A DNA stretch of 64,000 nucleotides from Escherichia phage vB_EcoM_KWBSE43-6: sequence record NC_048186.1. One strand, written 5' to 3'. Below are positions 17,356-22,500 of the stretch, piece by piece. The notes below the pieces were generated by a model, which saw only the letters and a program-made list of their open reading frames with translations, did no database searches and had not been told where the DNA came from. Position 1 is the stretch's first letter; every line of letters starts with the position of its first letter. The translations under genes and the position numbers were made by a program.

Positions 17356-17868
17356 TTATTTGTCTGGGTTTACGCAAAGGGGAGTTGTAGTCAGCTCGCC
17401 TTTATCATCAAAACTGTATTTCAGAACCGCATATTGGTCAACCATGCGATAGACTTCAATACCGGCATTCATCATTTCCACGATGCCCGTCGTGATCCTG
17501 TACGGTTCACAGTAGATCACTTTATCGATCTTGCCGCTGGCAATAATACGTTTGGTGCACTCAGGGCAAGGACTGTGAGTGACGAACATAACCAGACCAC
17601 ACCAATCTGCCGCATGTTGAGGTAAACGGTTCAGAGCATTTTCTTCGGCGTGAATAACACCGTCAGATACCAGCTGGCCGTCTACTTCTATTTCGCACAC
17701 ATTAGGAGCGCCGGGCGCAGTGCCATTCCAGCCAATAGCCAACGGCTGATCAACCCGAGGATCTACGATAACACAACCAACCTGGAGACGGCGGGCATAA
17801 CTGGTTTTGCCATATGCCTGGGCTGCTCTCATATGGGCAAACATCATGCGTGGCTTAATCATGGACAT
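17356..17868 (-). CDS. cd: dCMP deaminase (cytidine/deoxycytidylate deaminase family)
   Basis: Zinc-binding motifs HAEENA and PCPECTK. Confidence 0.9.
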   Translation of the reverse strand: MSMIKPRMMFAHMRAAQAYGKTSYARRLQVGCVIVDPRVDQPLAIGWNGTAPGAPNVCEIEVDGQLVSDGVIHAEENALNRLPQHAADWCGLVMFVTHSPCPECTKRIIASGKIDKVIYCEPYRITTGIVEMMNAGIEVYRMVDQYAVLKYSFDDKGELTTTPLCVNPDK

Positions 17869-18199: not shown

Positions 18200-18261
18200 A
18201 ATGGCATCTCCTAATAAATTAAGGAGAGTATATACTCTCCTTTTTCAATACGCTTTCAAAT

Positions 18262-18648
18262 TTAGTTCAGGCAGATTTCTCGCCCCAGCGCAGTCAGGCG
18301 ATAGAACTGGATCACTTCCCCACGAGCATAGCGATAATTGCCGTCAGGGGCGTCATGACCGCCATCATGGGTTACAGTAAACCAAGGCTCAATCAACCCT
18401 TTCTTGAGTAGAGACTCCCCGGTTTGGGTATCCCAAGGATCACCCAGGACGTTGGTCAGATGCCGGCTCGGGGTAAAATTCCAAACGCGGACACCTTTAG
18501 AATTTTTCCAGGATTTGGCATAACGTTTGGAATTGATAATAAGCCGGTTGCTGTCTTCAGATTTCAACATACCGAACATATAATTCAATTGATGGCCCGT
18601 ATAGCGAGGCCACTTTTGAGTTTTCACAACAGTATCTTTCGTTTTCAT
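18262..18648 (-). CDS. Hypothetical protein
   Basis: 128-aa ORF. Confidence 0.4.
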   Translation of the reverse strand: MKTKDTVVKTQKWPRYTGHQLNYMFGMLKSEDSNRLIINSKRYAKSWKNSKGVRVWNFTPSRHLTNVLGDPWDTQTGESLLKKGLIEPWFTVTHDGGHDAPDGNYRYARGEVIQFYRLTALGREICLN

Positions 18649-19016
18649 AATATTCCCGCTCTTTCAAGGATAATTTCAACTTCACCCCAATCCACAAAGG
18701 GGCGCTTAGACATTGGGTCATAACTCAGAGGACAACCAAGAGCAGCGTCGTCAATATACAATTGCGCATATGCTTTTGGTGAATCTGTCCATTCATGCTG
18801 TGTGGGATTCTTGTTGATACCATACAGCGGGATATCAAATGACTGGAACCAATCAACCGCTTCTTCAAGTTGTTTCCCGCTGCGCATGGTGAACAGAATC
18901 AGAAGATGATTTTTATCCACCAACTTCTTTAGAATCTCTACAGCACCGATATGGCGTCCGATGAGAGGGTATTCATGGGTAACGCACGTCCCATCAAAAT
19001 CGATACCGATTATCAT
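18645..19016 (-). CDS. HAD-superfamily phosphatase (small, putative nucleotidase)
   Basis: Motif [11 protein letters not shown] (DxDGT) at N-terminus. Confidence 0.5.
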
Positions 19017-19606
19017 AATGATTCCCCATTGTGAAGCTGTAACAGTTCTTTAAACGTAGCCGGGCGGCGTAAATGATCCCAGCTTGAGTTCAGGTAATCC
19101 GGGTTCCCTACTTTGCGGGAATGCCAATGCCCGTGAACATTATATTCCCAACGATCCAGGAGTACGGGCACATGAGTGACAATCACTTTGGAAACGCTGC
19201 CGTCACTCCGAGCCATCTTGTATTCAAACAAAGAACCGAATTTGCTGATCCATTCACTTAGGAATAACTGCATCAGCATTGAAAAACTGTCGTGGTTCCC
19301 CTGAGTTACTTTGATGTTGAAGTTGGGCCGCCAATCATCAGGAACCTTACCATGCATCTTTGGTAGGTTACGCGCCGCGCCTTCTCGCATCAGTTCGATG
19401 AACGCATCTGGGCCACCGAAGCATGTGTCGCCCGTAATGATCAAGGAATCATCCCGGCCACACGTTTGGAATATGCTGTCGATAACTGCGATGTCGTGTT
19501 CATCAACTGTTTCAAACCCACGTGATTTGGGGATCTTTTTATGTTTCAGGTGGGGATCACCCAAAAAGAAAACTTTACCCGCCATATTCTTTTCCTCTGA
19601 GATCAT
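19013..19606 (-). CDS. Calcineurin-like metallophosphoesterase
   Basis: Motifs GDPH, GDTCFGG, QGNHDS, GHWH. Confidence 0.7.
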
Positions 19607-20036
19607 TATAGAAATTGATTAACATATTGTCAGTCCATCCTGACCAGTCGAATACATCAAAATCAGCCACACCTTGGTACATATTGACGATAGCAGGCGA
19701 AAATATGACATCAACCTGATTTTTATCGTTGTCATTCACCTGAACTTTGATCCAGAACAAAGATCGGTCTTCCAGAATATGTGCCAATTTAGGATAACGA
19801 GAGGATATTTCCAATGCCCACACATCTAATATAGAACGAAAATCATCTTCCATTTTATAAATGAATGCCGTGGAAATCGGATGGCCAAGATATGGACTCC
19901 AGGATTTATATTGTGTTACTTCCTGGATGCTGGACACCAATGGTATCACCAATCCCCGCTGATATTGTGCTGACAAAGAAGGGATAGAATTAAGATATGA
20001 CAATATCTCTTCACGCTGAATCTGTGTTAATTTCAT
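19575..20036 (-). CDS. Hypothetical protein
   Basis: 153-aa ORF. Confidence 0.4.
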
Positions 20037-20698
20037 TTTAGTCCCACCTCATAACGATGACGAGTACAGGCCATACAATCGCAGTTCTTTTTCAGAACCG
20101 GATATTCACACCAGGTCATCATCCCGTAAAGAGGACGAAGGGCTTCATAAAACCAGGCTTTCTTCAACCCGATCATGGGGAACAACAATTCAGCCGGGCG
20201 ATTTTGTGGATCAGCCAACATAGCATACCCTTCCATGATCTTATTGAAGGAACGGATATACTGCAGGGCATCATCACCGTTCACATATGCCATGACATAC
20301 GTCTCAGGATAGATAGATGCAAGCTGAGTGCCAAGCAACCATATTGGGGCTTGGGCCAATGCTGAACGGAAAGGGCCAGCTGCTTCTACCTTTAATATAG
20401 GGATTTCATCATTGTCCCAATGTTGTGTTAATTCTGGACGATATTTTTCTGCCCATTGTCTGATCTTTTTCCTAGACCACATTTCACGCCGGGACTTGAA
20501 CGAGTTGTTCTCCAGGTCGCAGTAGATCGTCCGGACATAATATCCGTGAGAAAGCAACCAGAACAGCATGTATGTACTGTCAACACCGCCAGACCAGAAC
20601 AAAGTCACACTCTTATCATTGAAATGCATGGGTAACTTTTGTCCTTCCAACACGTCGCGTACAAATTCTCTGTCATTGAATTCTACATTGATTTCCAT
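20033..20698 (-). CDS. PP-loop ATPase (QueC/ExsB-like N-type ATP pyrophosphatase)
   Basis: SGGVDS PP-loop motif near N-terminus; C-terminal Cys cluster CDCMAC; about 220 aa. Confidence 0.5.
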   Translation of the reverse strand: MEINVEFNDREFVRDVLEGQKLPMHFNDKSVTLFWSGGVDSTYMLFWLLSHGYYVRTIYCDLENNSFKSRREMWSRKKIRQWAEKYRPELTQHWDNDEIPILKVEAAGPFRSALAQAPIWLLGTQLASIYPETYVMAYVNGDDALQYIRSFNKIMEGYAMLADPQNRPAELLFPMIGLKKAWFYEALRPLYGMMTWCEYPVLKKNCDCMACTRHRYEVGLK

Positions 20699-20700
20699 GA

Positions 20701-20943
20701 TTACGCCTTAATCATTCCGAGAGCCTGGGCAATATACCGTTCCGCCCCCTTTAAAGAATCCTTAATGATCTTATAGAATTCTTCCCTGGTCACAATATGA
20801 CTATCAGCCATATACGTGTTGGTCGTAATGCCGTGAGAATCACGGGCATAATGATGGTATAATTCTACACCACCAACATTGAATGTGACAGTTCTGGTAC
20901 GGGATATGCTCATGATTTGTCTCGGGTTAGATAGATATATCAC
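20701..20943 (-). CDS. Hypothetical protein
   Basis: 80-aa ORF. Confidence 0.35.
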   Translation of the reverse strand: MIYLSNPRQIMSISRTRTVTFNVGGVELYHHYARDSHGITTNTYMADSHIVTREEFYKIIKDSLKGAERYIAQALGMIKA

Positions 20944-20961
20944 AATAATACGTTATTTCTT

Positions 20962-20987
20962 ATATAGAAAAGCCCCTTACGGGGCTT
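20962..20987 (-). terminator. Rho-independent terminator-like hairpin
   Basis: AAGCCCC-GTAA-GGGGCTT then TTTCTAT in minus sense; overlaps stop of the 20977..21327 ORF. Confidence 0.4.
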
Positions 20988-21327
20988 CATCTTTATCAGA
21001 TTTATAAACTTCCCATCGGCCTATTCCACGCCATTCACCAAGATCGTTCCAGGTGCGAGTCCCTACCCAGCCACCAACTTCATAATAATGACATATACAT
21101 GCCCAGAAGTCTTTGAAAGTTACTTTCCGAGTTGGTTTCACACATGCGATTTGCCAGCGGGTTAAGCTGATTGCCTGGAACAATGGATGGATATAATTGC
21201 TATAGATCAAATATATCGCGATGAGCACAATGCATCCCACAAATATCATACCGATAGCAGTGAAAATAAACATTATTCCACCTTTAATCCCATCAGATCT
21301 TCCATGGTTTTCTGGATGCGGAGCCAA
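20977..21327 (-). CDS. Small membrane protein
   Basis: Hydrophobic helix GGIMFIFTAIGMIFVGCIVLIAIYLIY. Confidence 0.4.
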   Translation of the reverse strand: MAPHPENHGRSDGIKGGIMFIFTAIGMIFVGCIVLIAIYLIYSNYIHPLFQAISLTRWQIACVKPTRKVTFKDFWACICHYYEVGGWVGTRTWNDLGEWRGIGRWEVYKSDKDEAP

Positions 21328-21959
21328 TCCAGCGCAGCATCATAACGAGGATCATGGTATACCATGCCTTCCAGTTCCCATGCCTTGATGCCGGCATAGC
21401 GATCCATCTGGCCAACGCCTTTCAGCCAGCTGACGATATCAAATGTGTGGTGATAATCCCACGGCTCATTGGAGTATTGCCCGCATGTCACTTCAATGAT
21501 ATGCTGGGCTTTACGCAGATCGAATAGATTTCGATCACACCAGTCAACCGACCTGGGATCAACCCCCAGGCGATGACACCCTTTGCGAATTTCGTCGGCC
21601 AGCTGATAGATGGAGATATCATCTTCCTTTGGATACAGGCTGACTTCACGGGCGGCATCACATGGATTATATTTCCCGTTCCCCAGCCACCAGTCTACAG
21701 TCACTTTCTCTTTGACACGACCGAGGTCGATTTGCTCTTTGACATTCAATTTAATGAATGTAGTACGTTCTTCGACTAGTTGCTGGAGAGTATAACGTTT
21801 GGTCAAATCAGCTACTGTCTGCGCCCAGGATAACATAACAGCGTCATCCCAGCGGCCCAGGGTTTCACTATCGGCGACCGCCAAAATATTTGATTTATAC
21901 ATTGTTACCCTCCACCCGGATAATTTCTTCTTCAGAATCGACGACGTTGATGTCATCAT
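21273..21959 (-). CDS. DEDDh 3'-5' exonuclease (T4 DexA-like)
   Basis: ILAVADSETLG (Exo I-like) and YHDPRYDA (Exo III-like H-x4-D); 228 aa, close to T4 DexA size. Confidence 0.5.
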   Translation of the reverse strand: MMTSTSSILKKKLSGWRVTMYKSNILAVADSETLGRWDDAVMLSWAQTVADLTKRYTLQQLVEERTTFIKLNVKEQIDLGRVKEKVTVDWWLGNGKYNPCDAAREVSLYPKEDDISIYQLADEIRKGCHRLGVDPRSVDWCDRNLFDLRKAQHIIEVTCGQYSNEPWDYHHTFDIVSWLKGVGQMDRYAGIKAWELEGMVYHDPRYDAALDWLRIQKTMEDLMGLKVE

Positions 21960-22500
21960 CCAGCGCGTTCAGATTTTCCATGTCTTCCGCAAACTTGTCT
22001 ACTTCCATGATGTAGAACACGGGGACAACCCGGCGGCGAGTGTCTTCGTACAGGGTTTCAGCCAGCGCTTCTACCTGGCGGACAACGTCATAAAGATTAA
22101 GACCGCCGATACCGCAGCCGATAGCTGGCAGGCCGATATAGACCGTTTCAGAATCCTTCGCTTCCATAATCTCGTGAAGTTGTTCAAACATCACTTGTAC
22201 AGAACTGATAACGGAAGGCATACGAGCATTTGGGCCTGTATAGAATTGAGTATACAGATTGAAGCCCCAAACACCCGTGTCACGGTCAAAGGCATAAGAC
22301 ATGCCACCGAGACGCTGCTCCGGCCCGCGCTCATCGTTCTGGTCTGCGCGCCAGACGTCAGGAAACCCCAGCCGAACGAAATTGGCGATACCCGCGCCCA
22401 TCACCGACCAGCAATTGGCGCCATGGGCGAATCCGTTAATAAGATTGAAACTTTTCGCGGCTTCCAACAAATTCCCACCACGAATGATATACGTTGTCAT
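21895..22500 (-). CDS. Macro domain protein (ADP-ribose binding/processing)
   Basis: Macro-like motifs FAHGANCWSVMGAGIA and IGLPAIGCGIGGLNLYD; acidic C-terminal tail. Confidence 0.5.
   Translation of the reverse strand: MTTYIIRGGNLLEAAKSFNLINGFAHGANCWSVMGAGIANFVRLGFPDVWRADQNDERGPEQRLGGMSYAFDRDTGVWGFNLYTQFYTGPNARMPSVISSVQVMFEQLHEIMEAKDSETVYIGLPAIGCGIGGLNLYDVVRQVEALAETLYEDTRRRVVPVFYIMEVDKFAEDMENLNALDDDINVVDSEEEIIRVEGNNV

Follow-up and report, generated by a model that had tools for sequence, protein, structure and literature searches.

What does a QueC-type PP-loop enzyme do in a phage that has no recognizable deazaguanine pathway? The question is raised by a gene on the minus strand of a 64,000-nt stretch from Escherichia phage vB_EcoM_KWBSE43-6 (NC_048186.1), here called the window. 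A reading of the sequence alone (the sequence-only reading) had taken the product (221 aa) for a QueC-type adenosine triphosphate (ATP) pyrophosphatase, pointing to an SGGVDS motif near the N-terminus and a CDCMAC cluster near the C-terminus, and had proposed that it may adenylate a nucleotide or base intermediate. Both motifs are present, at residues 36-41 and within residues 197-211, respectively. Profile comparisons place the protein in a phage-specific sister clade of QueC, the preQ0 synthase, and of Cap9, an enzyme of antiphage defence; this clade (phrog_1550) represents a third branch of the QueC fold, one confined to phages. The reading that we favour, with moderate confidence, is a stand-alone accessory adenylate-forming amidoligase of this clade, acting on a nucleobase- or nucleotide-like substrate other than 7-carboxy-7-deazaguanine (CDG). 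Four alternatives rank lower: a true QueC, an enzyme of Cap9-like conjugation or of counter-defence, a tRNA-modifying enzyme and a sulfurtransferase.

Family placement and conserved residues

The open reading frame (ORF) is a genuine gene and no chance ORF, as indicated by a full-length match to phrog_1550 (residues 1-219; E 3.1e-68, 231 bits), by orthologs in 197 phage records, mostly Kuttervirus phages of Salmonella and E. coli, and by a ratio of nonsynonymous to synonymous substitution rates (dN/dS) of 0.15 against the ortholog of phage 0507-KN2-1, which denotes purifying selection. The ortholog of phage ECML-4 is 55.7% identical, and that of Sajous1 was detected by one peptide in the phage proteome (PMC10892097). 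An exhaustive phmmer search retrieved 551 cluster representatives as relatives, 138 of them at E<=1e-10; these proteins are ~200-300 aa long, with ~30% identity across residues 29-215, and all the distant relatives sampled (61/61) were assigned to phrog_1550. The hundreds of sequence clusters in the clade come from Ackermannviridae, jumbo phages, mycobacteriophage Muddy and many uncultured phages. In BFVD, proteins of Muddy, Vibrio phage YC, Pseudomonas phage Noxifer and Ralstonia phage RSF1 have the fold of the target protein, with a template modeling (TM) score of 0.75 for the Muddy ATPase. A scan of cellular genomes, covering 185,579 species of bacteria and archaea with one genome each, gave two full-length relatives only, both isolated genes, and the clade is essentially viral.

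The SGGxDS loop follows the first β-strand of a Rossmann-like fold, which is the feature of the PP-loop ATP pyrophosphatase (adenine nucleotide alpha-hydrolase) superfamily. Within this superfamily, single-sequence searches of PDB, Pfam and NCBIfam reach the PP-loop only, and deep profiles are required for placement. As a single sequence, the protein scores 22.0 bits against Pfam QueC (PF06508; threshold 22), over residues 32-80 only, and 15.2 bits against NCBIfam QueC (TIGR00364), for which the equivalog cut-off is 150.3; it lies far below the cut-offs of the MnmA, ThiI, TilS and argininosuccinate synthase models and does not match the PAPS_reduct domain of PAPS reductase and DndC-like proteins. 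A profile of 120 clade sequences, when compared with solved structures, matched Bacillus subtilis QueC (3bl5; E 1.1e-11) and Cap9 (E 1.3e-9) from end to end, including the Cys ribbon, and matched all other PP-loop families at the N-terminal motif alone. Alignment of the clade profile with E. coli QueC by hhalign gave 95.3% probability and E 2e-8 over 178 columns. The comparison with QueC, PAPS reductase, MnmA and TilS models, which the sequence-only reading had proposed, thus ranks QueC and Cap9 best, the others matching at the PP-loop only or staying below cut-off. Because the full-length match is confined to QueC and Cap9, the QueC-type description was right for the fold and the clade.

Hutinet et al. 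(2019) set the ECML-4 ortholog and the Muddy protein apart from QueC as "singleton QueC-like" proteins, probably of another subfamily of N-type ATP pyrophosphatases, and the literature search yielded nothing on the function of the phrog_1550 clade apart from this remark. The protein of the window is a direct member of this group, the same in kind, and carries in addition an N-terminal extension of 28 residues (a helix) that is specific to Ackermannviridae. It is therefore a member of a previously noticed phage-specific variant of the QueC fold and nothing categorically new. The clade lies outside the coverage of the 2026 QueC-family survey.

The conserved parts of the gene (positions in the window) are as follows.

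20033-20698, minus strand: gene for the phage QueC-like PP-loop ATP pyrophosphatase, 221 aa, a member of the phrog_1550 clade
20573-20596, minus strand: PP-loop W35-SGGVDS-T42, the pyrophosphate-binding motif, from the translation (SGGVDS, residues 36-41, at nt 20576-20593)
20483-20509, minus strand: N64-N65-x-x-K68-x-x-x-E72, a clade-specific motif at the site of QueC YxQxHxxE, from the translation and hhalign mapping
20339-20353, minus strand: Q116-A-P-I-W120, at the site of QueC VPxRN, from the translation and profile mapping
20258-20275, minus strand: D142-D143-A-L-Q-Y147, the acidic pair corresponding to QueC T126/D127 and Y147 to QueC Y131 and Cap9 Y115
20159-20161, minus strand: K180, corresponding to E. 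coli QueC K165 by profile mapping
20066-20110, minus strand: four-Cys ribbon C197-E198-x7-C206-x-C208-xx-C211, that is CEYPVLKKNCDCMAC, residues 197-211, aligned with the Cys ribbon of QueC and Cap9

Conservation was counted in a family set of 120 members of the clade. The ATP/PP-loop site is intact, with G38, D40 and S41 invariant and W35, S36, G37 and T42 at least 90% conserved. The clade motif is kept nearly throughout (N64 in 108/120, N65 in 110/120, K or Q at position 68 in 118/120, E72 in 119/120), as are Q116 (112/120) and the Trp or Phe at position 120 (109/120). D142 and K180 occur in all 120 members and D143 in 100, and the aromatic platform at position 147 (Tyr, Phe or Trp) is present in 115; position 149, an Arg in this protein, varies among Pro, Asp, Asn, Glu and Arg. 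The four-Cys cluster is of the Zn-ribbon type, with C197 in 120/120 members, C206 in 115, C208 and C211 in 119 each, and the adjoining E198 in 115/120. An AlphaFold2 model built from the 120 sequences replaced an earlier model from 19 close homologs, which was poorer at the C-terminus. The PP-loop, D142, K180 and all four Cys vary little or not at all among the 120 members; from this, from the dN/dS value and from the ortholog peptide, the enzyme is predicted to be catalytically competent. A pseudogene or degenerate enzyme is ruled out by the invariant catalytic residues together with the purifying selection.

The same comparisons bear on two alternatives drawn from other PP-loop families. The first is an RNA- or tRNA-modifying enzyme similar to TilS, MnmA, TtcA or ThiI, which would act on phage or host tRNAs, for example by forming lysidine on a CAU tRNA or by protecting against anticodon nucleases. 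We regard it as quite unlikely: each of these families scores lower than QueC and Cap9, with a sequence match at the PP-loop only; the 221-aa protein lacks a THUMP domain, a TilS C-terminal domain or any other RNA-binding domain; and neither the catalytic Cys residues nor the central CxxC...C Fe-S triad of TtcA/TtuA are present. The rest of the compared region is, moreover, common to sister phages without the gene. The second is a sulfurtransferase of the YcfA, LarE or TtuA type, in which a base carbonyl would be adenylated and swapped for sulfur, the Cys cluster serving as an Fe-S site. This is very unlikely, since each position of the cluster has its counterpart in the Zn ribbon of QueC and Cap9, all four ligands being Cys, so that no open iron site is left; and there is no sulfur-carrier or cysteine-desulfurase gene nearby.

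Departures from canonical QueC and related enzymes

The canonical features of QueC are SGGxDS; YxQxHxxE, with an essential Y35; VPxRN, with an essential R99; YPDC, in which Y131 is necessarily aromatic; K165; and C(x)8CxxCxxC, with an essential Y189 (Libby et al. 2026, PMC13329287). The structures of Cap9 and QatC assign roles to such residues: the Tyr stacks on the deazaguanine and the Asp two residues on reads its N1 and N2, the Arg stacks on the base and holds the adenine, and a Phe is a stacking residue (PMC13279940 and the Cap9 preprint). The phage protein has in common with canonical QueC its size (~220 aa), the SGGxDS PP-loop, the overall α/β fold, a PL...K motif (K180 for K165), D143 for D127, Y147 for Y131, the C-terminal four-Cys ribbon and, presumably, the adenylate-forming chemistry. 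The signature, in contrast, is largely replaced. YxQxHxxE is absent in favour of NNxxKxxxE, the aligned residues being L62, N64 (for Q37), a deletion (for H39) and S66. VPxRN has become xQxPxW, with Q116 in place of R99 and W120 at the position of the stacking Phe. The Y-P-D pair is only half kept, the aromatic Y147 being present and the guanine-reading Asp (D133) replaced by R149. The four Cys align with C(x)8CxxCxxC but are spaced Cx8CxCxxC, and Y189 is replaced by E198. In turn, D142 is a new invariant of the phage clade as compared with QueC. As the signature residues are replaced, the protein is very probably not a QueC in the functional sense.

A true QueC, i.e., a preQ0 synthase, is the next alternative, and RefSeq and PHROGs carry the label "QueC-like queuosine biosynthesis". 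The full-length homology including the Cys ribbon also speaks in its favour, and the window carries tRNA-Tyr(GTA) twice and tRNA-Asn(GTT). The chance of it is nevertheless very slight. Besides the NCBIfam score of 15 bits against a cut-off of 150, the protein has no YxQxH, and the changes R99 to Gln, D133 to Arg and Y189 to Glu fall on positions that are essential or substrate-reading in QueC and Cap9. The QueC of phage 9g, used as a query, did not detect the protein at E<=1. The target gene is phage-restricted and has no queD, queE or folE linkage, and the hosts already own a QueC. Two uncultured phages, loci L011 and L013 of the neighbour survey described below, each encode a canonical QueC, with YxQxH, VPxRN and YPD all retained, and a member of the phrog_1550 clade a few kb apart in the same replication module.

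L011, 471-1268 and 8052-8807: canonical QueC and clade member
L013, 1428-2231 and 7998-8708: canonical QueC and clade member

Because both phages encode both enzymes, the canonical QueC and the clade member are not redundant. An apparent intein was also seen in the DnaB of these two loci. The protein of the window is almost certainly not a preQ0 synthase, and the label "queuosine biosynthesis" is misleading for the clade; a non-QueC assignment prevents deazaguanine DNA modification from being falsely inferred in therapeutic-candidate phages.

That no other deazaguanine pathway genes are recognizable, as the sequence-only reading had stated, was borne out. Probes for FolE, QueD, QueE, DpdA and Gat-QueC from phage 9g had no match in the window, nor did they have one in the closest complete reference genome, although each probe found itself in the controls, and neither sequence has an annotated folE, queD, queE or dpdA.

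The QueC fold is known to extend beyond preQ0 synthesis, Cap9 being an agent of protein deazaguanylation, and the present clade adds a phage-only branch. Cap9 of type IV cyclic oligonucleotide-based antiphage signaling systems (CBASS), which deazaguanylates the N-terminus of the CD-NTase (PDB 9NTO), has 15% sequence identity to the phage protein. Of its CDG-reading pair Y115/D117, the phage protein keeps the aromatic residue only, and the equivalent of Cap9 R86 is a Gln. The gene is a phage gene and not part of a defence island, and there are no CD-NTase or Cap10 (TGT-like) genes near it. QatC of the QatABCD system resembles the phage protein in that it is a QueC-family enzyme with its CDG-recognition residues replaced. 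It differs by large N- and C-terminal extensions, by a TxT motif in place of YxD and by an obligate QatB partner, whereas the phage protein has 221 aa and Y147-I-R149 at this site; no qatA, qatB or qatD gene lies near the target gene, and PADLOC gave no specific QatC hit.

Distribution, gene neighbourhoods and proposed reaction

Over the 6 kb around the gene, identity to Klebsiella phage 0507-KN2-1 (Ackermannviridae, Taipeivirus) is 96%, so the window belongs to a Taipeivirus, a ~160-kb myovirus of the ViI-like type. The gene is conserved in Kuttervirus. In Taipeivirus it behaves as a gene-sized presence/absence cassette, the boundaries of which were obtained by blastn.

20041-20707: presence/absence cassette, with ~19 nt in its place in Klebsiella phage phi1_146021

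The DNA of the gene occurs in 10 of the 48 records that have the neighbouring genes, and these 10 records represent five distinct Taipeivirus phages. In sister phages that are 96-98% identical, it is cleanly gone while the genes for a phosphoesterase, a HAD-like protein and dCMP deaminase are kept; vB_KpnM_Croc_ER14 lacks window positions 19627-20693, so that the 153-aa ORF next downstream is missing along with the gene. In Serratia phage IME250, the gene is present and that for the HAD-like protein apparently absent. As sister phages miss exactly a gene-sized stretch, the gene is an accessory early-region gene in Taipeivirus, outside the essential machinery of DNA replication and thymidine hypermodification, and it cannot be needed for either. 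An essential role in thymidine hypermodification of the 5-hydroxymethyldeoxyuridine (5-hmdU) type was considered and is ruled out, most sister phages being without the gene. The natural pairs of sister phages with and without it provide an experimentally accessible system.

The genes downstream of the target gene are listed here.

19575-20036, minus strand: 153-aa ORF, phrog_17979, the start of which overlaps the stop of the target gene by 4 nt; found in part of the genus only
19013-19606, minus strand: calcineurin-type metallophosphoesterase, phrog_547 (E 5e-43), with GDxH/GD/GNHD/HxH motifs
18645-19016, minus strand: 123-aa HAD-like protein, phrog_1238, with a DxDGT motif (PDB 2obb, E 1e-16)
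17356-17868, minus strand: dCMP deaminase (Pfam, E 1e-16)

The target gene heads this minus-strand run, which continues from the HAD-like gene through two small ORFs to the dCMP deaminase, with stops and starts that abut or overlap; upstream of it lie genes for a DexA-like exonuclease, a macro-like protein and topoisomerase II subunits. An operon with the metallophosphoesterase, HAD phosphatase and dCMP deaminase had been the basis on which a nucleotide-related role was argued. The gene order, the common strand and the abutting ends are as described, but the argument built on them is weakened by the independent gain and loss of these genes; the earlier interpretation as a whole thus stands in its family assignment and in the missing pathway, and less so in this third respect. 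The region 18600-21000 is a mosaic early region in Taipeivirus, in which the target gene, its 153-aa neighbour and the genes for the phosphoesterase and the HAD-like protein come and go as separate gene-sized units among genomes of 96-98% identity.

Relatives were surveyed at 70 viral loci, with their neighbours clustered. One uncultured lineage accounts for 28 loci with the fixed order SNF2 helicase, small protein, PP-loop gene, family-B DNA polymerase and Nudix. The SNF2 helicase was considered as a dedicated partner, being adjacent in 33 of 60 non-Ackermann loci; as 28 of these are one syntenic lineage, it was set aside as replication-module context. In ~25 other lineages, the neighbours include RecA, DnaB, gp32, a 5'-3' exonuclease, topoisomerase, dCMP deaminase (twice), ThyA, ThyX, DHFR, a Mom-family protein and a C5-methylase, and no universal partner gene was found across the lineages surveyed. 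Homologs of the HAD-like protein, by sensitive search, lie near clade members in L011, where the 123-aa gene directly precedes the clade member, and also in L025 and L070/71. For the metallophosphoesterase, homologs at no more than 8 kb from a clade member occur in L047, L049, L052 and L070/71, and dCMP deaminase is next to one in L049 and L064. These recurrences give modest support to a phosphorylated nucleobase or nucleotide as the substrate, and are weighted no higher because they were counted without a background frequency.

Among the loci surveyed, only L011/L013 and L070/71 have a deazapurine flavour. In L070 (7212-9019), and likewise in L071, a type-I phosphoribosyltransferase gene, a divergent clade member and a QueD-like gene (PTPS, E 8e-25) form a cassette; a Q_salvage (DUF2419) gene lies 6 kb downstream (L070, 15168-16097; same in L071), and SbcCD-like genes lie upstream. 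The toyocamycin pathway is said to combine the QueC ToyM with the phosphoribosyltransferase ToyH and the HAD phosphatase ToyI. The elements of such pathways (QueC-like enzyme, phosphoribosyltransferase, QueD-like enzyme and small HAD phosphatase) occur piecemeal in L070/71 and L011, and the HAD-like gene alone in the window, whereas no single phage locus has the full set and the source phage is without a phosphoribosyltransferase/QueD/QueE set; the resemblance is a lead rather than a test.

In the SNF2/polymerase lineage, a protein of ~120 aa is encoded immediately upstream of the PP-loop gene (L012, 7675-8040, and 19 other loci; cluster 3). Its N-terminus is strongly conserved as M-[G/A]-x-x-Y-x-W-x-x-N-P-F-x-D and recalls the exposed small-residue N-termini on which Cap9 and QatC act. 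As a family-wide partner it was rejected, for it is confined to this one uncultured lineage, with relatives neither elsewhere nor in the window.

This brings up the alternative that the enzyme, in the manner of Cap9 or QatC, would join a protein, at its N-terminal amine, to a nucleobase-like acid, or would divert such an acid, as modification of a phage or host protein or as counter-defence against deazaguanylation-dependent immunity (type IV CBASS, Qat). It is an unlikely one. Apart from the restriction of the M-[G/A] protein to one lineage, the small ORFs flanking the target gene in the window have no Met-Gly start; the PADLOC QueC model gives 23.7 bits and covers the PP-loop only; the CDG-reading Asp is missing; and no partner gene is conserved across lineages.

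The accessory amidoligase reading can be spelled out as follows. The enzyme would bind ATP-Mg, as do QueC, Cap9 and the nitrile synthetases, and would use ATP to adenylate a flat heteroaromatic substrate at the oxygen of a carboxylate or carbonyl, as suggested by these enzymes and other PP-loop enzymes; the adenylate may then be attacked by ammonia or another amine to yield a C-N bond. Since the CDG-reading residues are replaced by other, strictly conserved polar residues around the pocket (NNxxKxxxE, Q116, D142 and E198), the substrate would be other than CDG. A substrate at the nucleobase or nucleotide level is the most plausible, given the replication and pyrimidine-precursor modules in which clade members lie and the recurring HAD-like, metallophosphoesterase and dCMP deaminase genes, and the earlier suggestion of a nucleotide or base intermediate as the compound to be adenylated is a reasonable guess.

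Several points weigh against this reading. Nucleotide-metabolism neighbours are generic for large phages. Within the genus, the target gene and its neighbours vary independently, which speaks against a common pathway of an obligatory kind. In L011/L013 and L070/71, clade members have deazapurine genes beside them, which makes a deazapurine-related substrate possible for the clade as a whole. Zn as the metal of the four-Cys cluster is suggested by homology alone. Finally, liquid chromatography-mass spectrometry of ViI DNA reportedly gave thymidine hypermodification only, which speaks against a DNA-base product in the family and leaves no known product to assign.

A bolder extension, which we rate as improbable, is that this virus-only branch of QueC performs chemistry new for phages, namely the amidation or conjugation, at the expense of ATP, of an acid that resembles a nucleobase or nucleotide, as a modification of a small molecule or nucleotide or as Cap9-like protein conjugation. 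The activity would be accessory and possibly one of counter-defence, e.g., against immunity based on 7-deazaguanine conjugation or on the manipulation of nucleotide pools. If the substrate were indeed a nucleotide or a defence-related metabolite, the clade would represent a new enzyme class in phage nucleotide metabolism or counter-defence.

Other features of the window

On the minus strand, the gene for a macro-domain-like protein (phrog_335, which bears the label "phosphatase") has a 65-nt overlap with the start of the DexA-like exonuclease ORF (21895-22500 and 21273-21959). The macro-like, HAD-like and metallophosphoesterase genes form a cluster of phosphate-processing enzymes. A terminator-like hairpin, AAGGAGAGTATATACTCTCCTT, with a 9-bp stem lies at 18221-18242 (minus strand), where a gap separates the ORFs of phrog_4677 and phrog_4059. 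The supposed operon could be divided there, with the target gene on one side and the dCMP deaminase on the other; a scan for promoters and terminators gave counts barely above those of shuffled sequence and was not decisive.

Seven tRNA genes, for Gln(ttg), Tyr(gta) twice, Asn(gtt), Ser(tga), Ser(gct) and Met(cat), are clustered at 54308-55995 (minus strand). The Tyr and Asn tRNAs are of the queuosine-type GUN class, and the CAT tRNA could be of the Ile2 (lysidine) type; no link between this cluster and the target gene was established.

In the reference genome NC_022343 (L074, 18517-21020, outside the window), adjoining genes are annotated as "ribose-phosphate pyrophosphokinase" and "nicotinamide phosphoribosyl transferase". 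The pair resembles a phage NAD+ reconstitution pair (Adps/Namat-type NARP1), and a gene for an acyl carrier protein follows at a distance of a few kb.

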